DNA from: an uncultured Gemmatimonadales bacterium
Lineage (GTDB): Bacteria > Gemmatimonadota > Gemmatimonadetes > Gemmatimonadales > GWC2-71-9
NCBI GenBank assembly: GCA_963748815.1
Contig: CAVVKJ010000005.1
Coordinates: 352,001-416,000 of the forward strand
Reading direction: 5' to 3'
DNA length: 64,000 nt
The notes beneath the pieces were generated by a model that worked only from the letters and a program-made list of their open reading frames with translations, was not told the DNA's origin and did no database searches. This document shows positions 37,509 to 52,106 of the stretch, in pieces; the first letter of the stretch is position 1, and every line of letters begins with the position of its first letter. The position numbers and the translations under genes are program-made.

Positions 37509-39943
37509 ATGAATCTCCTCACATCCCTGCAGGGTCCCCTGGCCGGACGGTACCGGCTCGAGCGCGAGCTCGGGCGCGGCGGCATGGCCATCGTGTTCCT
37601 CGCCGAAGACCTCAAGCACCACCGCCAGGTAGCCATCAAGGTGCTCCGGCCGGAACTCGCCGCCTCGGTCGGCCACGATCGGTTTCTCCGGGAAATCACC
37701 CTCGCCGCCGGGCTGCAGCATCCGCATATCCTCCCGCTCCACGACAGCGGCGCCATCGAGGGCGATGGGGAGACGCTGCTCTTCTACGTGATGCCCTTTG
37801 TTCAGGGCCAGTCGCTGCGGCAGCGGCTGGATGAACAGGAGCGGCTTCCCCTTGACGAAGCCCTCGCGATCGCCCGGGAGGTGCTGAGCGCCCTCGAGTG
37901 CGCGCACACGGCCGGGGTTGTTCACCGCGACATCAAGCCCGAGAACATTCTCCTGTCCGGTGGTCACGCCCTCGTCGCCGACTTCGGCATCGCGGTCGCC
38001 GCGCAATCGACCCCCGGAGACTCACGGCTCACCGACGTCGGCTCGGTCGTCGGGACCCCTGCCTACATGAGCCCTGAGCAGGCTGCCGGCGAGCGCGACA
38101 TCGACGCCCGCAGCGACCTTTATGCCTTCGGATGCGTCCTCTTCGAAATGCTCGCGGGCACGCCGCCGTTCACGGGGCACTCCCCCCAGGCGATCATGGT
38201 CAAGCGGTTGACCGAGGATGCGCCCTCGGTGCGGCGGCTGCGCGAGGATGTGCCCGACGAGGTCAACGCGGCGCTCCAGCGGGTGCTCTCGCGCGGGCCG
38301 GCCGATCGCTTCCCCACGGCGGCCGCTTTCGCGGCGGCGTTGCAGCCCGGGCACGTGGGCGGGGCGACACCGGTGCCAGGGCCGGGGGGCCGGCCGCGCA
38401 GCCGGACGGTGCTCCCCGTCATCGGGCTCGTGGCCGTCGTGGTCTTCGGAATCCTGTGGTTTCTCCGGGCGCCCGCACCGCCGGCATCCGGGTGGCGGCT
38501 GGCGCTGACCGACCTGACGGTGGCGAGCCCGGACGCCTCGACGAACTATCTCCGCAGCGGCATTCCGGAATACCTTGTCGCGGAGCTCCATCGGCTGCCT
38601 GGTCTCGACGTGATCCCGATGAGCCTCTCTCGGCGAGACTCGGCCGTTACTTCGCCTGTGGAGCTTGGCCGAAAGCTGGGCGCCACGGCGGTGCTCACCG
38701 GTACGCTCGCACATTTTGGCGGCGCGCTGACCATCAACGCCGAACTGGTCCGGGTGTCCGACAGCGAATTGCTATGGACCGGGCACTTCGAGTATCCCGA
38801 CACCGACTACGCCGGCGTGATCCCCGCCGTCGTGGCCGGCATCGCGGACTCCCTGCAACTGCAGCTGAGCGGGGGCGCCCGCCGCGACGCGATCGAACGA
38901 TCCACGGTCAATCCCGTCGTGCTGGACCTGCTGCTGCGCGCCGGTCACCGGTGGATGCAGGGCATCGCCGGCGCCAGCGGCGACTCGGCCACCGTCGATT
39001 CGGCCCGGGTCCTCTACGCGAGGGTGCTCGAGCGCTCGCCGCGAAACCCGCGGGCCATCGCCGGATTGGGGAACTACTACTACATCTCCTACATCCGGGG
39101 GTGGGGCGTGCCCGGGGGCCTCTCGGCGGACGAGGTGCACGCCCGCGCCGACTCGCTGACCGACCTCGTCCTGTCGCTCGACAGCACGGTCATCATCTCC
39201 TACAATCCGGTCGTGGTCTCCCGGCTCTACCTGGATGACGACTTCGACGGTGCCGGCAAGGCCGTCGACAAGATGCTCGCACTGGATTCCGGGTACGCGG
39301 AGGCCTACCGGTACCGCGGAATCATCCGTCAGGAGCTCCTCGGCGACCTGCAGGGGGGCATCGCGGACTTTGAGCACTCGGTCGACCTGGAACCCAGCGT
39401 GCAGCGTCTCAACAGCCTCGCAGCGGCGCTGATGGCCGCTCGGCGGTATCAGGAAGCGGCGGCGGTCCTCGAGCGCTCGATGATGTCCCGCCCGAGTGCT
39501 GGCGCGATGTCTCGCCTTGTCACTGTCTACGACAAGCTCGGGCGGCCCGCCGACGCTATCCGCGTCCGGCGACTCATGGATTCGACGGGTGCATCCGCCG
39601 CGCCCTACGAGGTCGCACTCGCTGCTCGGGACACCGCGGGCTATACGCGCGCCCACCGGGCAGAGCTCCGCCACGTCGGCGGACTCGCTGATCGCCCGGC
39701 TGGATCGAGGCCGATGTCGTTCCCGCGGAGCGATTCAACGTGGCGGAGCTCCGGATCGGTGCGCTCCTCTGCGAGCTGGGCGACTCGAAGAAGGCCATGG
39801 ACCTCGTCGAGAGCCTCTACCGGATCCGCCCCAAGCGCTTGCGTTGGATCGTCACCAATGTGGACCTCGGCTGCCTCCGCGATGACCCGCGGTACCTCCC
39901 CATGGTCACGGCTGCCGGCCTGGAGCGCTACCTGCGGAACTGA
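37509..39943 (+). CDS. Ser/Thr protein kinase with TM, TolB_N-like and TPR-like regions (frameshift near 39680)
   Basis: LGRGGMA, VAIKVL, HRDIKPEN, DFGIA, GTPAYMSPEQ; C-terminal LRDDPRY in the 39740-39943 frame. Confidence 0.85.
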
Positions 39944-40040
39944 CGAGCCGGAGCATCGCCAGCTTGCCCCACCCCTCCCATTCGGGCTAAACTCCGTCCT
40001 GCCAATTTGGCTGTTTTCTCCTCCAGATTCCGGTTGGTCC

Positions 40041-40940
40041 ATGTCCAAGCGCGACTTCCTCTGCATCCCGGATTTCACCGCGGCCGAGCTGCTGTCCCTC
40101 CTGGACCTGGCGGCCCGAATGAAGTCCGGCGCGTATCAGGAGCGCCCGCTGACCGGCAAGACGCTGGCGATGATCTTCGCCAAGAGCTCGACCCGGACCC
40201 GCGTCTCCTTCGAGGTCGGTACCCTCCAGCTCGGGGGCCACGCGCTCTTCCTCTCGTCGCGCGACATCCAGCTGGGCCGGGGCGAGCCGATCCGGGACAC
40301 GGCACGCGTGCTCTCGCGGATGGTGGACGGCATCATGATCCGCACCTTCGCGCATGCGGATGTGGAGGAGCTGGCCCGGTTCGCCTCCGTGCCGGTCATC
40401 AACGGACTGACCGACCTGCTCCACCCCTGCCAGATCCTCGCCGACCTCCTGACCACCCTCGAGGCGTTCGGCACGCTCAAGGGGAAGACGGTGGCGTGGA
40501 TCGGCGACGGCAACAACATGTGCAACAGCTGGCTCCACGCCGCCGGAATCCTGGGTTTCGAGCTGCGCGTCGCCTGTCCCGAGGGCTACGAACCGGACCG
40601 CGCCATCTTCCAGCGGAACGCGACGTTGACCAAGCTGCTGGTGACGGTCGATCCCGACGAGGCGGCGGCGGGGGCGCACGTCGTCACGACCGACGTCTGG
40701 GCGTCCATGGGCCAGGAAAGCGAGGCGGCCCAGCGGGCGCAGGCGTTCAAGGGATATCTGGTGGACGAGGCGCTGATGCAGCGCGCCGACCCGGGCGCGA
40801 TCTTCCTGCACTGCCTCCCCGCGCACCGCGGGGAAGAGGTGACCGAGTCCGTGCTCGAAGGCCCGCAGTCGCGGGTGTGGGACGAGGCGGAGAACCGCCT
40901 CCACGTGCAGAAGGCCCTGATGGCGACGTTGATGGGGTAG
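40041..40940 (+). CDS. argF: Ornithine carbamoyltransferase
   Basis: SSTRTR, HPCQ, GDGNN, TDVWASMG, HCLP, EAENR. Confidence 0.95.
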   Translation: MSKRDFLCIPDFTAAELLSLLDLAARMKSGAYQERPLTGKTLAMIFAKSSTRTRVSFEVGTLQLGGHALFLSSRDIQLGRGEPIRDTARVLSRMVDGIMIRTFAHADVEELARFASVPVINGLTDLLHPCQILADLLTTLEAFGTLKGKTVAWIGDGNNMCNSWLHAAGILGFELRVACPEGYEPDRAIFQRNATLTKLLVTVDPDEAAAGAHVVTTDVWASMGQESEAAQRAQAFKGYLVDEALMQRADPGAIFLHCLPAHRGEEVTESVLEGPQSRVWDEAENRLHVQKALMATLMG

Positions 40941-42685: not shown

Positions 42686-44191
42686 ATGGCTGTGCAGATC
42701 CTCCTCACCATGGACGACCTCGAGACCGCAGTGCCCCTCAACGCCGCGCTCGAGAGCGCCGGCTTCGCGACGACGATGGTCTCGGCGATGGACGACGTCC
42801 GCTCCGTCTTTCGGCGCGAGGGCCCGGAGCTCCTCATCCTGACCGGCGCGGTGCACGAGTCGCCCGCCGTCGCCCTCGTCACGATGGCGCGCGAGGCCGA
42901 GGTGTCGACGCTCGCGCTCATCGAACCGACCGACTCCGAGCGGGCCGAGCGGGTCGCGCGCCTCGGCGTCACCGCGGTGATGAGCAAGCCGATCGTCCCC
43001 GACGACGTGGTCGGGGTCGCGGGGCGCCTCGTCGCACGGCGCCGTCTGCAGCAGCGGACCGGCATCAGCGGTGAGAGTGCCGCGGTGCAGGAAGTGCTCG
43101 TCAAGATCGAGCAGATGGCGCCGGTGTCGAGCACGGTGCTCGTCCAGGGCGAGTCGGGCACCGGGAAGGAACTGGTGGCGCGGGCCATCCACGATCTCTC
43201 GCCACGGGTGGGGAAGCCGTTCATCGCGGTGGACTGCGCCGCCATTCCCGACACGCTCCTGGAATCGGAACTGTTCGGGCACGAAAAGGGGGCGTTTACC
43301 GGCGCCGCCGAGCGGCGGCTCGGGCGGTTCGAGCTCGCCGACACCGGCACGATCTTCCTCGACGAAATCGGCGACATTCCCCCCTCCACGCAGGTCAAGC
43401 TGCTGCGGGTGCTGGAGAATCGCGCCTTCTTTCGCGTCGGCGGGACGCAGCCGATCAAGGTCGACGTGCGGGTGGTGGCCGCCACGAATCGCAACCTCCG
43501 CGATGCGGTGCAATTGGGTGAGTTCCGCGACGATTTGTATTACCGGCTCAGCGTGCTCAATATCTATCTTCCACCGCTCCGGGAGCGGCGGGAGGACATC
43601 CCCCTGCTGGTCCGGCGCTTCATCCGGGAGTTCGCCAAGGCCCACGACCGCCCCTTTCGGGGCATCGCGCCTGAGGCGCTGGAGCGGCTTGTTGCGGCAC
43701 CCTGGCCGGGGAACGTTCGCCAGCTCCGGAACCTGGTCGAATCGATGGTGGTGCTGGCCCCAGGGACCGAGATTCGCCCCAGCGACATCCCCCACGATGT
43801 GCTGGAAGGGGCGGGGTCCCTCCTGCCGGTGCGCCTCCCCCAGCCGGGGCGGGACGTTTCCGGTCAGGAATTGGAGTTTATCTTACGTAATATCATGGAC
43901 TTACGGCTCCAGATGGAGGAGCTCCGCCGCCGGATGGATTCGGGTCCCCAGCGGGTCCAGATCATCGACCTCGGGGATAGGCAGCCGGTGGCCGATCTGG
44001 CGGGAGACCTCAACGGGGAGGACCTCGGGGCCATCCTGTACCGGTCTGGCATGACAATGGCTGAGGTGGAGAAGAGGGCCATCGAGGCGGCCCTTGAGGA
44101 GCACCGCGGCAACCGTCGGAAAGCTGCGGAGGTCCTGGGGATCGGTGAGCGGACACTCTACCGGAAAATCAAGGCGTTCGAACTGGGCTAA
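42686..44191 (+). CDS. Sigma54 enhancer-binding protein with a degenerate receiver domain
   Basis: [23 protein letters not shown]-terminus is receiver-like (TMDD, KP) but has LILTG where the phospho-Asp would sit. Confidence 0.88.
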
Positions 44192-44292
44192 GTGGTTGTT
44201 TTCTTGATATTTGCGGGGTGTCACCTCTTGACAGTTCTCAGGTCCGGGCCAATATTGACGATGGCACGCTCCCCTAGGCCGTGGGGGAGGGC

Positions 44293-45987
44293 GTGATCTT
44301 TTCGATCGACTCCGAAGCCTGCGTGGCCTGTCTGGCCTGCGTCCGCGTCTGTCCGACGGAAGCGGTCGCCGTGGACGGGGAGCAGGTGCAGATCGTGGAT
44401 GAGGCGTGCATTGCGTGCGGCGAGTGTCTGCCGGCGTGCCCGCATCAGGCCATCCACGCGAGCGGAGAAATCGGTCGCGCGCTGACGGTCGCGGCTCGGG
44501 GCGACGGCATTCTGATCCTGAGTTCGGAAGCGACGGCGCACTTTTTCCCGGCTACGCCGGAGCAGGTGGTCAACGCCTGCTACGCGGCCGGGTTCCGCAC
44601 GGTGCATCGCGGGGTCATCGGCGATGAACTCGTGGCGGCGGAGTACTTGAGTCTCTGGCGTGACGAGGGGTGGGGCACGCTGATCCGGTCCACCGATCCG
44701 GTGGTGGTCGAGACGGTGCGCATCGATTACCCCGAGCTGGTGCCGTACCTGGCGCCGGTCACGATACCTGCGGTGGCGGAGGCGCGGTATCTTCGCGCGC
44801 AGCACGGGCAGGAGCTTCGCATCGTGTACGCCGGCGTCGCGGCGCCGCGGAACACGCCGGAGCTCGATGCCGCCGTCACCTTCGACGACCTCGAGCGGAT
44901 CTTTCAGTTGCGGGGCGTCTCGGTGCTCGCGCAGGCCGATTTCTTCGCGCGGATTCCCGAGGAACGGCGCCGGCACCTGAGCGCCGCGGGCGGCCTGCCG
45001 CTCGCCATGCTCGAGGAGGCGCGCCACGCGAGCCGCCGGTTCCGCACCATGCGGGGGCTCAAGCACCTGCCGGCGCTGGCCCAGGCGGTGGCGGTCGACC
45101 GGCTGGACCTGGGGTTCGTGGACCTGCTCTCCTTCGAGGGGGGGCTCGACCACCCGCTGCTCGGTCCGAAGGACCAGCTCTACTGGCGGCGCGCCCTCCT
45201 CGCGAGCGCGGAGCCGCCGCGGAGCCCGCGACCGGTGGTGGATGGAGCGGTGGTGGCGAGTATCGGGGCCACGTTCGACATCCGGCCCCGGCGGCTGGCG
45301 TCCGATCCGACCGCGGTGGCAGCCTTGCTCGACGCCATCGGTCCGGGGCCCAATGGGCGCCCTTGGGACTGCGGGGCCTGCGGCTTCACCACCTGCGCGC
45401 GGTTCGCGTCCGCGGCGGTGCTCGGCCGGGCGACGCTCCGCCAGTGCCCGCCGTACCAGGAGCGCCGCGCGGAAGAGGCCTCGCGCGAGGCGGCGGTGGA
45501 CCTGCTGACCGGACTCGCCACCTTCCGGGTGCTGCGCGACCGGCTGAGCCACGAGATTGAACGGAGCAAGCGCAGCGAGGAAGGGTTCGCGGTGCTGTTC
45601 ATCGACCTCGACCGCTTCAAGCTGCTGAACGACCGGTTCGGGCACGAGGCAGGCAACGAGGTCCTGAAGGCGGTGGCGGCGGAAATCCGGAGCGCAGTGC
45701 GCGCCTCCGACCTTGCCGCCCGCTACGGAGGCGACGAGTTCGTCGTCATCCTGACCCGCACCGACCTCCATGGCGCCCGCCGAGTGGCGGAGGCGCTTCG
45801 GGCCGGCATCGAAGGGGTCGGGCGCCGACTGGGGTACGAGGTCGGGGTCGTGACCGTTAGCATCGGGCTGGCCGAGTTCGACCCGGCGAGCCCCACCGAG
45901 GGCGACCTGCTGGTGACCGCCGATCGCGCCTTGTACCAGGCCAAGGCCACGGGCCGGAACGCCGTGGCCAACGAAGGGGCCGCCTGA
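44293..45987 (+). CDS. Diguanylate cyclase with 2x[4Fe-4S] ferredoxin, degenerate [FeFe]-hydrogenase-like domain and a second FeS motif
   Basis: CVACLACVRVCP, CIACGECLPACP, CGACGFTTC...CP, DLDRFK..ND.FGH, RASD-LAARY-GGDEF; GTG start after GGGAGG. Confidence 0.85.
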   Translation: MIFSIDSEACVACLACVRVCPTEAVAVDGEQVQIVDEACIACGECLPACPHQAIHASGEIGRALTVAARGDGILILSSEATAHFFPATPEQVVNACYAAGFRTVHRGVIGDELVAAEYLSLWRDEGWGTLIRSTDPVVVETVRIDYPELVPYLAPVTIPAVAEARYLRAQHGQELRIVYAGVAAPRNTPELDAAVTFDDLERIFQLRGVSVLAQADFFARIPEERRRHLSAAGGLPLAMLEEARHASRRFRTMRGLKHLPALAQAVAVDRLDLGFVDLLSFEGGLDHPLLGPKDQLYWRRALLASAEPPRSPRPVVDGAVVASIGATFDIRPRRLASDPTAVAALLDAIGPGPNGRPWDCGACGFTTCARFASAAVLGRATLRQCPPYQERRAEEASREAAVDLLTGLATFRVLRDRLSHEIERSKRSEEGFAVLFIDLDRFKLLNDRFGHEAGNEVLKAVAAEIRSAVRASDLAARYGGDEFVVILTRTDLHGARRVAEALRAGIEGVGRRLGYEVGVVTVSIGLAEFDPASPTEGDLLVTADRALYQAKATGRNAVANEGAA

Positions 45988-46031
45988 GGGCGGCCGCAGC
46001 CCCCACAGGCATTCAGCGACAGGACATCGAG

Positions 46032-46787
46032 ATGGCGTTCAATTCCGCGAGGCAGTCCGACGCCGGCTTCCAGGCCGCGCGCACCACGCCAAGTGGTGGG
46101 CACGGTGGTGAGGCGCCCGATCCCTGGGGCGTGCGCCGGGCGGAAAACCTCCTGACCACGCTCGAGGGGATTCTCTCCGCGCGGGTCGTCACCACGCCGC
46201 TCGGCGAGGTGAGCGAGGTGCACATCCTGGCCCAGTCGGGGCTCGCGCCGAAGCAGCTGGTGCGGAACATCGAGTCGGCGCTCCTGGCGCAGCTCGGCCT
46301 CCGGGTGGACCACCGCAAGATCAGCATCGCGCAGACGGCGGACGTCAAGCCGATCGAGGCGCTCGAAAAGGAGGCGGTGCGGAGCCAGGCGCTCCACCGG
46401 GCCATCCTCTTCGAGGACCTGACGGTGGCGCCGGGCAAGCGCGCGCACCGGATCACCATCAGCGTGAGCCTCAGCTTCCTCGGCCGGAAGGAAACGGCGG
46501 AAGAGGAGAGCAGTGACACGCCGCGGAGCCGGGTAGAGGCGGCGGCGCGGGCCACGGTCTTGGTGCTCGACCGGTTGCTGGAGGACTCGTCGGTGGCGCT
46601 CGAGGGGGCCAAGATCGTCCCCGCCTTCGACCGGGACTTCGTGTTCGTGGCGGTGCAGGGGCTGGGCGGGCGCGAGTCGCTCGTGCTGACCGGCAGCGCG
46701 CAGATCAAGGAAAGCGCCGAGCGGGCCGCGGTCTTTGCGGTGCTCGACGCAACCAACCGATGGACGGAACTCCGCCGACCGCGATAG
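46032..46787 (+). CDS. Hypothetical protein (EVHILA...KQLVRNIESAL...DHRKISIAQ motif)
   Basis: Host-like codon usage, RBS AGGA, soluble two-domain-looking sequence; no function assignable. Confidence 0.75.
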   Translation: MAFNSARQSDAGFQAARTTPSGGHGGEAPDPWGVRRAENLLTTLEGILSARVVTTPLGEVSEVHILAQSGLAPKQLVRNIESALLAQLGLRVDHRKISIAQTADVKPIEALEKEAVRSQALHRAILFEDLTVAPGKRAHRITISVSLSFLGRKETAEEESSDTPRSRVEAAARATVLVLDRLLEDSSVALEGAKIVPAFDRDFVFVAVQGLGGRESLVLTGSAQIKESAERAAVFAVLDATNRWTELRRPR

Positions 46788-46956
46788 GCGCGGGCGGCGA
46801 TTCTACCAACCCGAGCGGAGGGAACAGAGCGAGGTAGGGGGTCGAGTCTTCAAGAGGCAGCGGAGACTAGCGGACAACAGAGCGGAGCGTCTGGTAGGCC
46901 ATAGCGAGGCCGACCACTTCCCGAGTCACTGATGTACTCGAAGGGAGGTGACGCTC

Positions 46957-47037
46957 ATGTTGCAGATTACTTGGCTTGCCGCCGCTGTGAAGTTCGTGGC
47001 GAATCTGTTCCTGGCCGAAGGCCAGGACTGGGCCTAG
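46957..47037 (+). CDS. 26-aa hydrophobic peptide MLQITWLAAAVKFVANLFLAEGQDWA (candidate signalling peptide)
   Basis: Near-perfect SD AAGGGAGGTGA 5 nt before the ATG; stop lies 10 nt before the HD-GYP ORF; below the ORF-track cutoff. Confidence 0.7.
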   Translation: MLQITWLAAAVKFVANLFLAEGQDWA

Positions 47038-47047
47038 TTAGGGCCTG

Positions 47048-48484
47048 ATGCCTCGACCCCCCACCGAGCTGTTCCAATCCATGAGATCACTCACCAAGAC
47101 CAATCTGTTCATCGCGTTCATGGCTTCTGTCGCCGTGGCGCTGGGCGTGTTGGCTTGGCAGCATCGGCAGCCCTCCCCGGGCATTTGGCCGCTTCTCAGC
47201 TTCATCTTCATGGCGTTTCTGGTGGAGCAGAGCACTACGGAGCTCAAGGTTTCCGCGCGCGGGTCGACCTCCTTCGTGATGCATATGTCCGCCGGTTTGA
47301 TTTTTGGTGGATTTTGGGGTGGGGTAGTCGCAGCTTCCTCAACGGCTCTTGGGCAACTGTCGATTGGTAACCCACCAGCAAAGACGCTGTTCAATATCGC
47401 CCAGCGCGCGGCATCTGTGCTTATCGCTGTTCTTGTCTATCGCCTGCTCGAAGGCGGCCTACCTCCTGCATACATGCAAGTCGTTGGAACTGTTGAGTCC
47501 TCGGCGATTCAGCGGGACTTCTTCCTATTCTTCGCATATGCCGCAACGTACTTCGTAGTGAATTCTATGGCGGTGAGTGGGGTTGTGGCGCTGAGCGCGG
47601 AGCGCTCATTCCGAGATGTGTGGAGCCTCAACACCCGCGGTGTCATCGGGTACGACCTCGGGGCCAGCGCCATCGCCCTGCTGCTGGCGTGGCTCTATAC
47701 CTGGTTCCAGGCCACTTGGGAGCTCGGCTCCATCGGTCTGGTCCTGGTGGTGATTCCGATTGTGGCGGTGCGGCATGTGTACGGGCTCTACCACCAGTTG
47801 CAGGAGAGCGGCCAGGAACTCCTCCAGGTGATGGTCAAGGCCATCGAGGCCCGCGACCCCTACACCTCCGGCCACTCCCTCCGGGTGAGCCAGCTTTCCC
47901 GGCTCATTGCGCTGGAAATGGGCCTCCAGATTCGCGACGTGGAACAGGTGCACACCGCCGCGCTGCTGCACGACGTCGGCAAGATTCACGAGGAGTTCGC
48001 GCCGCTGCTGCGGAAGGAAGACCGGCTGACCGCCGACGAAACGGCGCTGATGCAGACCCACTCCGCCCGGAGCGCCGAGCTGGTGGGGATCATCTCGAAG
48101 TTTCGCGGCTTCATCCAGGAGTCGGTGCGCCACCACCACGAGCGGTGGGACGGGAAGGGATACCCGGCCGGCCTCTCCGGGCACGAGATCCCGCTGGCCT
48201 CCCGGATCATCCTGGTGGCCGACACCATCGACGCCATGACCACCGACCGCCCCTACCGGAAGCGGCTCCCGCTCGAAGTCGTCATCGCGGAGCTCCAGAA
48301 GTGCCGCGGCGGGCAGTTCGACCCCGAGGTGGTGGAACATGTGGTATCGTCCGTCGCGGTGCGACGTCTGATCACCGTCGGTGTCGAATCGTCTCCGATG
48401 CCTGCCACTGTCACAGTCTCCGACCCCGGCGCCACTCGTGCTGGATGGGCGAAGAAGTCGTTCTGGAAGGGGCGGTCGGCCTAG
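47048..48484 (+). CDS. Membrane-bound HD-GYP c-di-GMP phosphodiesterase (start may be 47081)
   Basis: About 7 hydrophobic segments, then AIEARDPYTSGHS.RV, LLHDVGK, HHHERWDGKGYP, DAMTTDRPYR. Confidence 0.9.
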   Translation: MPRPPTELFQSMRSLTKTNLFIAFMASVAVALGVLAWQHRQPSPGIWPLLSFIFMAFLVEQSTTELKVSARGSTSFVMHMSAGLIFGGFWGGVVAASSTALGQLSIGNPPAKTLFNIAQRAASVLIAVLVYRLLEGGLPPAYMQVVGTVESSAIQRDFFLFFAYAATYFVVNSMAVSGVVALSAERSFRDVWSLNTRGVIGYDLGASAIALLLAWLYTWFQATWELGSIGLVLVVIPIVAVRHVYGLYHQLQESGQELLQVMVKAIEARDPYTSGHSLRVSQLSRLIALEMGLQIRDVEQVHTAALLHDVGKIHEEFAPLLRKEDRLTADETALMQTHSARSAELVGIISKFRGFIQESVRHHHERWDGKGYPAGLSGHEIPLASRIILVADTIDAMTTDRPYRKRLPLEVVIAELQKCRGGQFDPEVVEHVVSSVAVRRLITVGVESSPMPATVTVSDPGATRAGWAKKSFWKGRSA

Positions 48485-48499
48485 CAGAGCCGAGACTTC

Positions 48500-51400
48500 T
48501 CAGATATCGAGCATCCCGAAAGCTCGCAGTTCATTTGCAGCTCCCAATGGGAGCTTAACCAGCCTCCTCCACATCTCCTCTCGTTCCCCCTCATCGGCAT
48601 CATTGGACTTGTGAATCGAGCCAGACCTTGGCGTTCAGGACCTCGGCCTGATCAATACTGTCTAGGGAATCTCTGGCGCGACAAGAGTGTCGCTAGGGCT
48701 AGTGCGCGCCTCTTCGATGGGGATGTCGCCGTTCGCGGCACTCTTGGCAAGCCATCGTGCGAAGGGACCAGCAAGAGAATCGGATTGAAGCTTCTCGCAT
48801 CTCCCCCGTCAGTGCCCCTATCGCGCTTTCCTGCGCCTCCCTGTTTCGTCCAAGTAAGGCGAGGACGTCGGCTGCGCGTAGCTGCCACAACTGGCGTACC
48901 CAACGTTGATCGACATGTTGAAGGGCTGCATTTCCTCGACGGAGTTCATCCAGGGCTTCCATTGTTTCACCACGAAGTGCATGGCCCTCTGCCAGGATGT
49001 AGTGGAGATTTTGATCAAGAATATCGATCTGTTGACTTCCACTTCTCGCCGGTGGCCCTGCTCGCCCATTGCAACTGGGCGTCCTGAATTGCCAAGTCGC
49101 GAATGGAACAGTGCAATGTTTGCAAGGAAAGAGCCGCAGCCGGCGCTCTTCGCCCATTTCACGCGCCGCAGCCACTCCACGCTCCCCGATAGCAAGCGCA
49201 ACTTCGTATTCGCCTAGGCTGCTATGGATAGCGCAACGCCCCAACAGTAGGGCGAGGTAGACTGAGTTCTTGATCTTGTTGGCCTCAAGGTCACCGATGA
49301 CCTCATCTATGACTTCAAGGCTGCGCGCTCGGTCGCCAGAGAAGTAGAGGCACAAGGCCTTGCCCAAGGGCGTATTCCCCCTTGTCCTCCAGGGAAAGTG
49401 CGCTGAACTCTTCGCTCTCAAGTTGCTTCCAGATGTCTGCGAGCAACGATCTGTCTCGGGTACTCCCGAAATAGTCTCGCTGCAATCCACAGTGCCCGAA
49501 GTCGCGTGTTGGGCTCTTCTGCCGATCTCGCTTCGCGGAGAAGATTCATTGCAATATCCCGACTCCGATCTGCCGTCCGGTCGTTTACTAGTTGTTCTGC
49601 GTAGAGCCGCAACACGTTTCGTCTTGTGAGAATCTCTGCGCGGGACGAGGCTCTGGACCGCGTCAAGCGACGCCATCGACTCCCGCATCCTCCCTTGTTC
49701 CTGGAGCGACTCTCCGAGCAGAAGGAGGGCTTCGCTCTTGTCCGGCTCCTTGAGCCGATCCATTGCCGTGGAGAGCCCACGCTCCGCCTCGTGCGGGGCC
49801 CCTCCGCGCATCGACTCCCGCGCCCCACGCAACAGATAGGGTGTCGCCTCATCGGGCCTCCCGGCGCGGATCAGGTGCCAGGCGATTTCCAGCCCCGGGA
49901 TCCGCCCGCCGTTCGCCTCGATGGCGAGCAGCCGGGAGACGACCTCGCCGTGCAGCGCCGTCCGCATCGGCTTGGGAATGCCGAGGTACGCATGCCCCCG
50001 CGTCAATTCGTTCACGAATTCGAGTCGCTCCTCCGTTTCGCGCAGCAACCGGGATGACCGGAGCGCCTCCATCGACTGACCCGTCGCGCCGAGCCCCAGG
50101 TCCACGATCTGGTACATCGGGAATTCGTTCAGTCTCGGCCCCAACACCGCCGCGAGCTGCAGCGCCAGACGTGCCGGTGCGTCGAGCCCCTCACAGATCC
50201 GGTCCAGCGCCATCCGGTAGGCATCTTCCGGGGGTGAGCGTTGACCCAACTCCTCGCGCATCGCCGGGACGGCGAGCGCGAGGCTGCCTTCGCCGCTGCT
50301 GATCCACTCGCTTACGAAGAGCTCGAGTGCGAGCGGATATCCCCCTGCGGCGCGGAGCATGGCGTCGCGCACCGATTTCCCCGGATCGGGACCGTCGGCG
50401 GTCAGCGTGTCGAGCATCTCGGCCGCCTCGTCCGGCGCCATTGGCGGCACCTCGAGGGAGACAAACCCGAGCCGGGTGTGGCTCTCGCGCAGGCGGGCGA
50501 TGTTCGGCGACTCGTTGGGACCCGTGGGCCGCGCGGCCAGCGCGATCATGACCCGCTCGGACTCGAACCGGCGGGCGAGAAGGTGGATCACGGACAGGCT
50601 GGCGTCGTCCGCCATGTGGAAGTCATCGACGACCAGCATCACCGGGGTCTCCTCGGCGATGGTCCGGAGCAGCGACTCCATCGCGTCGGTCACCCGAATG
50701 CGGAACGACTCCCCGTGGAGCTGCAGGGACGGGGGAAGGCTGGGGAATTGCTCCCGGAGCGCCGGAACCGCCTGGCTCAGGTCGGCCAACGACTGGGGAG
50801 AGGTGCCCAGCGCCTCGGGGCGCTCAAGCAGTCCGCGGACCAGCGCGCCGAGGGCGGCGTAGGGAATCTCCCGCTCCAACTCGTAGCACTGCACCCGGCT
50901 GGTGACGGCCCCGTCGAGGCTGACGGCCGTCATCAGCCGCTGCAGCAGGGTGCTCTTGCCGATGCCCGATTCGCCCAGGACCAGGGCGTGCGTGGGGACG
51001 CCGCGCGTGGTGCGCTCCCAGGCTTCGTACATCGTCTGGTACTCGGCGGTCCGACCGATGAAGGTGCGATCCCGCCATTGCTCGGTGGGGACGCGCGGGC
51101 GGTTGCCGTCGCCGCCCCCCTCGAGTGTCCCGCGGCGGAGGCGCCTCGCCATCGCCTCGAGCTGCTCGGAAGGCTCGGCGTGCAGTTCGGTATGGAGATC
51201 ATGCTTCCAGGTCTCGAACGCCTTGAGGGCGCCGATGCGGTCGCCGGCGAACGCCCGCGCTTCGATCCGTGCCCGGATCGCCGCTTCGCTCAGTGCATTG
51301 TGGCGCAGGGTCCGCTCGGCGAGTGGTTCGATGCCGGTGAAGTCTCCCGTCCGGCGGCAGTAGTCCATCTGGCGGACCAGTGCCGCCTCGATCGAGGGCC

Positions 51401-51836
51401 AGAGCCGGGCGCGCTGCTGGTCGCGCCAATGGTTGAAGCTGGGAGCGTCCGGGACGTCGAAGTCCTCGAGAAAGGCATCCACCTCGAGGGCAGGCAGAAG
51501 GTCCGTGGCCAGGACCTCCCCCCGTTGCAGCCGGTCCAGGTCACACTCCAGCTGGACCGTGGTGCGAATGGTGTAGGTGTCGCCGGGGAACGACTTGGGA
51601 CCCACCCGGTTCCGGAGTGCCCAGATGGCGGTCCCCATCGAATGGCGCGCCTCGTTCATCCCGGCGTTCGACCAAAGGAGGTCGGCAAGCCGCTCGCGAC
51701 GGATGGGAGCCCGCCCCTCCATGGTGAGATAGATCAGGAGCGCGAGCTGCTTTTGGGTCCTGAGGCGGATCGGGCTCCCGCTGGCGTCGAGGAGGGCGGG
51801 ATGACCCAGACAACGGAGGTATGCGGGCTTGCCCAT
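48500..51836 (-). CDS. SARP/AfsR-like regulator: wHTH-BTAD-AAA(STAND)-TPR (several frameshifts in the 3' third)
   Basis: LRCLG, KQLALLIYL, RERLADLLW, F.HWRDQQR (BTAD), GESGIGKS, VVDDFH; plausible C-terminus ...ELRAFGMLDI* ends at 48500. Confidence 0.8.
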
Positions 51837-52106
51837 CGAAGGCTCCGGTAGCGTGGTGCGGATACCATGGGGTCGCGGGCTCAACGGGGGATCAACGACG
51901 AGAGGATCAGGTGTTGAGAGATTGTAATGTTCCTCGCCTCCGCGATTTGTCCAGAGCCCTGCATCACGGTTCGCAAGCCTTTTCCCTGCAACGTGTTGCA
52001 CGTCACGGTACGGCCCCGATGTTGCGACTCTCTCCTTTGACTCGGTAGATTGCCCCGCCTTTGTGACCCCGCGCACTCCCCATTGCGCCTCAATCGGAGA
52101 TTCTCA

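Follow-up and report, generated by a model that had tools for sequence, protein, structure and literature searches.

A conserved micropeptide gene within a structured RNA domain adjoining MASE9-HD-GYP genes in several bacterial phyla

We have analyzed a short open reading frame in a 64,000-nucleotide stretch of DNA (the window) from an uncultured Gemmatimonadales bacterium, the genome of which is 3.16 Mb in size and 86% complete. This ORF, together with its ribosome binding site, is a real and conserved protein-coding gene under selection at the protein level. The gene is located inside a conserved and covarying RNA domain closed by a long-range stem (P1), and both the ORF and the RNA stay with the gene for a MASE9-HD-GYP membrane protein through rearrangements of the locus. 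The enclosing RNA structure and the MASE9 sensor are additions to the initial annotation of the window. Our favoured explanation, in which we have moderate confidence, is that the peptide would serve the neighbouring MASE9 sensor as its cognate partner or as its ligand and would be made from a stem-closed, translationally gated RNA.

A summary of the features of the locus is presented in Table 1. The micropeptide ORF is found between the gene of a 251-aa protein and the MASE9-HD-GYP gene. The neighbours identified in the window by Pfam scan are, in order, a sigma-54 activator, an Fe-S GGDEF protein, the 251-aa protein of unnamed family, MASE9-HD-GYP and a STAND/BTAD protein. Ahead of the module, and in its orientation, are the genes of the sigma-54 activator and of a GGDEF fusion whose Fe-S part resembles [FeFe]-hydrogenase (42686-45987, +); a cyclase and a phosphodiesterase are thus found in one gene run. 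The BTAD and AAA/STAND protein (48699-52076, minus strand) is convergent with the HD-GYP gene, and its C-terminal part looks frame-shifted. Another segment (37509-40940, +) is a single open frame with a Ser/Thr-kinase-like and an ornithine-carbamoyltransferase-like part, names given from reading of the translation, probably joined by a frameshift. The micropeptide and the MASE9-coding part (46957-47700) have a G+C content of 58%, compared with 66-70% for the upstream gene and the HD domain. No sigma-70 promoter-like site was seen by a simple scan of positions 45500-49500.

Table 1. Features of the micropeptide locus in the window, and radical-SAM genes at related loci
Feature	Position	Strand	Basis or remarks
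Conserved 251-aa protein, no named family	46032..46787	+	N-terminal small alpha/beta domain and LeuA-allosteric-like C-terminal domain; candidate AGCG-repeat binder
Six AGCG(G/A) repeats	46814..46907	+	Genome's only cluster of four AGCG(G/A)A within 100 nt
P1 5' arm of long-range stem (core 46837-46846)	46817..46846	+	Folding, covariation
Three-way junction	46885..46956	+	P2 46885-46891/46950-46956; P3 hairpin 46893-46915, AGCG loop; P4 46916-46922/46943-46949
Shine-Dalgarno of micropeptide	46941..46951	+	Predicted paired, helices P4/P2
Micropeptide gene, 26 codons	46957..47037	+	ORF call, conservation, pN/pS
P1 3' arm (core 47052-47061)	47052..47080	+	Starts 15 nt past the micropeptide stop; ends at the likely HD-GYP start codon
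MASE9-HD-GYP membrane protein, predicted c-di-GMP phosphodiesterase	47081..48484	+	HD and GYP motifs intact; without own SD; frame open from 47048
B12-binding radical-SAM genes	L205:2835-4175, L206:8315-9664, L207:6295-7641, L208:5639-6982, L209:7713-9056		

The signals of the ORF are as the initial annotation had described them: AAGGGAGGTGA is separated by a 5-nt spacer from the ATG, and the frame of the 26-aa peptide ends in TAG. The ORF listing opens this frame earlier, with an in-frame GTG (46948). The ribosome binding site alone is weak evidence for a gene, since, of the 20 GGAGGTGA-N4-8-ATG sites of the genome, 10 start ORFs no longer than 45 aa; it is conservation that identifies the ORF as a gene. 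Of 120 loci fetched around relatives of both flanking genes, 6 were duplicates and 5 lacked an anchor, which left 109 loci from the window's phylum. In 86 of these 109 a small ORF of 14-35 aa was called, with 82 distinct peptides and use of all three stop codons, and the lack of conservation of ORF or RBS that the initial annotation named as a refuting outcome did not occur. Of the 23 loci without a call, 15 are cut off by a contig edge and 5 contain paralogues of the upstream gene that no HD-GYP gene follows; the remaining 3 show the ORF on other inspection (L083, L084 and, with an apparent frameshift, L027). The exact 26-aa sequence had already been called as a gene on 6 JGI/IMG contigs, and the micropeptide gene is mostly missed by gene callers.

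Selection acts on the protein product. Over 13 colinear sequences of 26 codons pN/pS is 0.30, and the variable columns number 13, 8 and 22 at codon positions 1, 2 and 3, so that the substitutions do follow codon position and the ORF also passes this second check of the initial annotation. The ORF caller used the leader motif, the SD and hydrophobicity as criteria, but not the terminal Trp; thus the hydrophobicity of the peptides is partly selected, while the terminal Trp is not. This Trp is the last residue in 27, the second-last in 50 and the third-last in 2 of the 86 phylum peptides, and 79 of them have it within the last four residues. The residue at W-5 is small (A, S, G or T) in 66 of 75 distinct Trp-tailed peptides and W-4 is E, G or D in most of the phylum peptides. 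The general layout is an amphipathic or hydrophobic N-terminal helix followed by a tail of a small residue, E/G/D and x-x-x-W. The window peptide has more of an amphipathic than of a transmembrane character, with a hydrophobic moment of 0.90 and a best hydropathy of 1.59 over 19 residues. The acidic tail noted at first holds for this phylum, with a mean net charge of -0.57 over the last 8 residues, but is lineage-specific, the mean in other phyla being +0.82. In several loci the Trp gives way to F, I, L or M, and this conservation of a side-chain type fits better than a Trp-codon sensor would. Scans of 45 of 52 micropeptide homologues against Pfam and NCBIfam gave no meaningful match, a result of little power for such very short queries.

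The association of the ORF with MASE9-HD-GYP genes is conserved both within the phylum and beyond it. This MASE9 subfamily is found in 92 of 151 genomes of the window's phylum, most of which also have the small ORF. Families of the phylum that lack MASE9 also lack the upstream protein; both are scarce or missing in three of them (f6, f7 and f10). A further 80 loci were fetched from other phyla, mostly Bacillota and Actinomycetota (including cultured carriers of the module such as Caldanaerobacter, Thermoanaerobacter and Desulfosporosinus), with one labelled Armatimonadota and a few Sumerlaeota. An adjacent HD-GYP gene is present in 64 of the 71 such loci that have at least 1,500 nt of downstream sequence, and in these 64 the ORF was found in 58 by automatic call and in 5 more by eye. 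Seven long loci are without HD-GYP: five of these are also without the ORF, one (L124) keeps the element before apparent gene remnants, and the call in the last (L185) looks spurious. The 62 distinct peptides of other phyla display a basic N-terminus, a hydrophobic core and a GGA-like motif (55/62); an aromatic residue occurs within the last four positions in 51 of them, and Trp in 38. Three genomes with distant MASE9-like proteins (L220-L222) show no such leader or peptide.

In 7 loci the element stays with MASE9-HD-GYP despite the insertion of an upstream HTH-REC gene. In one genome (G110) the MASE9-HD-GYP gene has moved by 13 kb and the element has moved along with it. On contig C11 of this genome (L213, L214) a full element precedes the relocated HD-GYP gene, and an orphan Trp-tailed peptide with a degenerate leader is found behind the upstream gene, with no HD-GYP gene downstream. 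A gene with HTH_17/MerR-like and receiver domains is inserted between the upstream gene and the leader in one clade (L102, L103, L105-L109 and L120). Tandem HD-GYP-type membrane genes follow a single peptide gene in ten loci (L121-L123, L150, L152, L164, L168, L177, L192 and L199 being those concerned).

Genes that could act on the peptide appear to be specific to lineages. Of 54 other-phylum loci, 40 contain a DUF5317-like gene, and DUF5317 was found in none of the 151 genomes of the window's phylum; DUF5317 was accordingly set aside as a general maturase, and no general maturase is evident. Two families of the phylum (f11 and f12) have a B12-binding radical-SAM gene directly after MASE9-HD-GYP in 5 of 5 extended loci, none reaching an NCBIfam cut-off. 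Since the peptides of these families have in common a His placed six residues ahead of the terminal Trp (a His-x-Gly-x-x-x-Trp tail), the enzyme may modify the peptide. Apart from this gene in these two families, the phylum loci have no conserved downstream gene.

The ORF is enclosed by RNA structure. The 313 nt that follow the stop codon of the upstream gene fold better than all of 100 shuffled sequences (z -3.9), and P1 pairs the leader with bases just past the micropeptide stop. RNAalifold recovered P1 and the three-way junction P2-P4 from 41 family-level sequences, with the SD and spacer paired and with changes on both sides in 24 of 34 pairs. In a 38-pair structure that we built ourselves 29 pairs change on both sides, a number reached by 0 of 500 shuffles, statistics which ignore kinship; when the register is slid the paired fraction drops from 87% to 44-51%, a control that likewise ignores kinship. 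The arms of P1 change wholesale, with a G-run and a C-run swapping sides between families. An alignment-free score of the P1 arms gave 32.8 for cognate versus 23.3 for non-cognate arms over 82 phylum loci, and 33.3 versus 20.0 over 67 other-phylum loci. Because relatives share arms, the cognate arm scored highest in its own row at only 20 of the 82 phylum loci and 33 of the 67 others. One of the 67 rows (L188) has a wrong automatic ORF pick; it is counted here but was dropped from the pN/pS, charge, SD and repeat analyses. The pairing of the SD is a prediction of the fold, with P(unpaired) of 0.06, and the near-perfect ribosome binding site of the initial annotation is thus present as sequence but predicted to be sequestered. 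No Rfam family matched above its gathering score in the window stretch, nor over the element in 12 loci. The only Rfam match within those 12 loci is a raiA RNA (RF03072) at L190:1853-2070, in a Slackia locus, about 1.4 kb upstream of the upstream gene of the module. A split Shine-Dalgarno, with an SD 5' of P1 brought beside the HD-GYP AUG, was also considered and set aside, as that purine-rich 5' flank is for the most part taken up in pairing with the 3' flank, which is rich in pyrimidines.

Sequencing runs provide a further clue. A search with the 331-nt element identified 20 runs that contain it, 12 of which are on record as RNA; 7 of these 12, all metatranscriptomes, and one probable DNA run were compared. 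Six of the seven RNA runs, from six studies, have a near-identical contig within ~46781-47069, inside or close to P1. Five of these contigs span 46838-47056, 46820-47016, 46846-47069, 46858-47031 and 46852-47021 (depth 78, one mismatch), and the sixth matches 46804-47062 and has 23 more letters on its upstream side. Coverage is complete across the region in the seventh RNA run (X4), and in the probable DNA run it reaches the upstream edge of the compared stretch. Such matches must be interpreted with caution: the runs were chosen for containing the element, contigs rather than reads were compared and these give neither ends nor levels, the element is more conserved than its flanks, and uncovered flanks in RNA runs do not prove lower expression. 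They are therefore only a weak hint that the domain bounded by P1 exists as a separate and abundant RNA.

The protein encoded downstream matches Pfam MASE9 and HD_5 over cut-off, and its MASE9 domain is the only MASE9 match in the window's genome. Among the relatives the HD motif is present in 72 of 75 loci, and GYP in 62 of the 62 in which that motif is reached. The gap of 10 nt between the micropeptide stop and the HD-GYP ORF reported initially needs correction: it had been measured to an ATG at 47048, and since this codon is ACG in several congeners the start is probably at 47081, 43 nt after the stop. A structural model of MASE9 (pLDDT 94) was made from the L036 homologue, which is 47% identical to the window domain. 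The top 14 VIA matches of this model are all ECF S-components, with Z scores of 14.8-10.5 and a best rmsd of 3.3 A over 189 residues; the next matches are BtuM (Z 7.9) and MreD (Z 7.0). The entry titles name riboflavin, folate, biotin, thiamin and metal binders, which correspond to NikM, RibU, FolT, BioY and ThiT. Identity of the model to S-components is 6-15%. Foldseek gave no match with E<=0.001, but its top rows are nonetheless the same S-components. On the basis of this model the MASE9 domain is predicted to have the ligand-binding fold of ECF S-components, a shared fold that does not identify the ligand. S-components bind small ligands in a membrane pocket. The identities of the peptides and of their MASE9 domains are modestly correlated (Spearman 0.38), a correlation confounded by kinship.

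The leader also contains short repeats. It has on average 3.5-3.8 AGCG(G/A) motifs versus 0.3-0.5 in shuffled sequences, and one of these is in a hairpin loop with P(unpaired) of 0.98. An AGCG-repeat regulon was considered and rejected: the genome was found to contain no second cluster of four AGCG(G/A)A, and hence no visible target regulon. From their co-occurrence with the upstream gene we infer that the 251-aa protein may bind the repeats. The model of this protein (pLDDT 92) has a C-terminal domain resembling the LeuA/citramalate-synthase regulatory domain (Foldseek E 1e-6; VIA Z 9.7); the N-terminal alpha/beta domain has generic fold matches, with CDF C-terminal domains, BolA and adenylation subdomains about equal. 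KH domains carry a GxxG loop; the upstream protein gave no KH match in Pfam. The family comprises 4,140 clusters at 50% identity, matches no solved structure by sequence search and is represented in the Atlas by unnamed clusters only. A stand-alone small protein that resembles only its LeuA-like C-terminal domain is encoded elsewhere (G000:C5, ~566,300-566,800).

According to the favoured explanation the peptide would tune the HD-GYP domain through the MASE9 sensor, and hence c-di-GMP turnover. The peptide helix may lie in or on the membrane and present its Trp-ended tail to the S-component pocket, either whole or trimmed after the small residue at W-5. P1 would close a domain of ~230 nt that outlasts the rest of the operon mRNA, and the peptide would in this way be made in excess over its receptor. 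Translation would need opening of the SD, probably by a protein that binds the AGCG repeats, most plausibly the upstream 251-aa protein. That the product itself matters is suggested by the conservation of side-chain type rather than codon, by the orphan peptide that keeps its tail and by the lineage-specific candidate maturases. The predicted S-component fold also agrees with the published suggestion that MASE9 binds a ligand within the membrane.

The main rival is a leader acting in cis, which we consider somewhat unlikely but serious. A ribosome at the micropeptide stop would melt or pre-empt P1, either opening an HD-GYP start that lacks an SD for re-initiation or blocking a terminator formed by P1 and a U-tract; the sequence of the peptide would then matter only for ribosome behaviour or membrane targeting. 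The 3' arm of P1 begins a median of 6 nt after the stop in this phylum (12 nt in other phyla), where a strong SD precedes only 19% of the first ATGs that follow P1 and is lacking for 81%; this is exactly the arrangement expected for translational coupling and argues against the partner reading. At least 5 U in 8 nt follow P1 in 15 of 78 phylum loci and 30 of 59 other-phylum loci, compared with 3% and 9% at random positions, and the SD of the micropeptide is itself paired. As in a coupling or attenuating leader, the structure adjoins the stop and either covers the downstream start or precedes a U-tract. On the other hand, 39% of the other-phylum HD-GYP genes have their own SD after P1 (-6 kcal/mol or stronger), so many of them have no need for coupling. 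In the window P1 is not followed by a U-tract and a simple scan showed no terminator-like site, so that a terminator was rejected there, and elsewhere the U-tracts may be no more than an extension of the helix, paired with A-rich 5' flanks. Regulatory codons are seen neither as a run nor as an invariant one of the TrpL/TnaC type, as the terminal residue varies among hydrophobic types and the single Trp is replaced in 24 of 62 other-phylum peptides as well as several in the phylum. The G110 orphan, too, keeps the family tail with no HD-GYP gene to regulate downstream. The roles of leader and partner are not mutually exclusive. The initial annotation had offered both a small membrane regulator and a leader peptide; the former comes close to our favoured explanation and the latter is the serious rival discussed here.

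Two other explanations appear less probable. By analogy with CsrB and RsmY and their GGA repeats, a dual-function, stem-closed RNA might use its AGCG repeats as a sponge to titrate an RNA-binding protein, which would likely be the 251-aa protein, with the peptide as a secondary product. The enrichment of the repeats, the exposure of one of them in an open loop, the confinement of RNA contigs to the domain and the joint scarcity of the upstream protein and MASE9 in f6, f7 and f10 are all consistent with this, but the genome has no second four-repeat cluster, the upstream protein is a putative RNA binder whose N-terminal fold matches are generic, and the element follows MASE9-HD-GYP rather than the upstream gene; we regard this explanation as unlikely. 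Still less probable, indeed very unlikely in our view, is a ComX-type pheromone, an analogy raised in the initial annotation, whose precursor would be exported, cut, prenylated on Trp by a ComQ-like enzyme and sensed outside the cell. In its favour, the near-terminal Trp and the small residue at W-5 might indicate where the precursor is cut, and the peptides of other phyla resemble signal peptides. The analogy does not extend to membership of that class: the Trp stands at the last or second-last position in 77 of the 86 phylum peptides, no ComQ-like prenyltransferase, ComP kinase or other histidine kinase was seen among the neighbours scanned in the window and the phylum loci, no Pfam family matches, and Trp is dispensable in many of the Bacillota and Actinomycetota copies, where only 38 of 62 have it within the last four residues.

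A more far-reaching version of the favoured explanation, which we regard as doubtful, would be a peptide-to-c-di-GMP system shared across phyla. A mini-mRNA of ~230 nt, cut out of the operon or outlasting it, would mass-produce a micropeptide with an aromatic tail; lineage-specific enzymes (DUF5317, B12 radical SAM) would modify the tail, a receptor combining S-component and HD-GYP would read it, and an amino-acid-sensing RNA-binding protein would gate translation. If this were true, the receptor would be an S-component fold of the vitamin-transporter kind joined to an HD-GYP domain. Enclosure of an entire ORF by a helix that is conserved by compensatory change across phyla, and that possibly delimits a separate abundant RNA, is also an unusual way to set the ratio of signal to receptor.

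The domain pair of the downstream gene is also that of Thermotoga maritima TM1467 and Streptomyces venezuelae HdgA. The preprint on MASE9, in the part available, defines the domain as a membrane sensor with no known ligand and suggests ligand binding within the membrane, naming no ligand (bioRxiv 10.1101/2021.11.05.467447). The word 'peptide' does not occur in its main text, from which the supplement could differ. HdgA was described as membrane-bound, poorly expressed and without developmental phenotype, which its authors attribute to missing activating signals (PMC6205966). The available portions of these two accounts name no upstream peptide or leader RNA for MASE9-HD-GYP, and relative to them the S-component fold comes from the model presented here. 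The module thus offers a cheap candidate ligand, a peptide of 14-35 residues, for a sensor family whose one studied member, HdgA, may lack a phenotype for want of its signal. Compared with ECF S-components, which share the predicted fold (14 chains), MASE9 is here fused to an HD-GYP output domain. No description of a peptide-RNA-MASE9 module was found in the literature searched, and term searches in the main text of three papers on structured RNA discovery gave no match (PMC8632094, PMC11109978 and PMC6429828), the supplements of which could list the motif.

Several known systems resemble the module in part. The CD1980.2 family of Clostridioides difficile, in the available text, consists of small membrane-associated, c-di-GMP-linked proteins encoded downstream of c-di-GMP riboswitches as signal outputs; by this description it is set apart from the peptide analyzed here, which is next to a degrading enzyme and has no riboswitch family match (PMC13724677). 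As a micropeptide gene in a structured RNA, with no published description found and tightly tied to MASE9-HD-GYP, the module stands apart, while the principle of a peptide acting on a cognate membrane sensor is already known. TrpL, TnaC and ErmCL are leader-peptide attenuators, and CsrB and RsmY are GGA-repeat RNAs. The module shares with them a small ORF in a structured leader and short repeats, one in a hairpin loop, but differs in having no Rfam match, AGCG(G/A) rather than ANGGA repeats, no codon run and a stem that spans the whole ORF. MgrB is a small-protein regulator of the membrane sensor PhoQ, and ComX and ComS/XIP are short Trp-containing pheromone precursors. Like these, the module combines a short hydrophobic ORF with a presumed sensor beside it and has a C-terminal aromatic residue; unlike them, its presumed receptor is a c-di-GMP phosphodiesterase rather than a kinase or RRNPP regulator, it matches no sequence family, and its gene is located inside a long-range stem.
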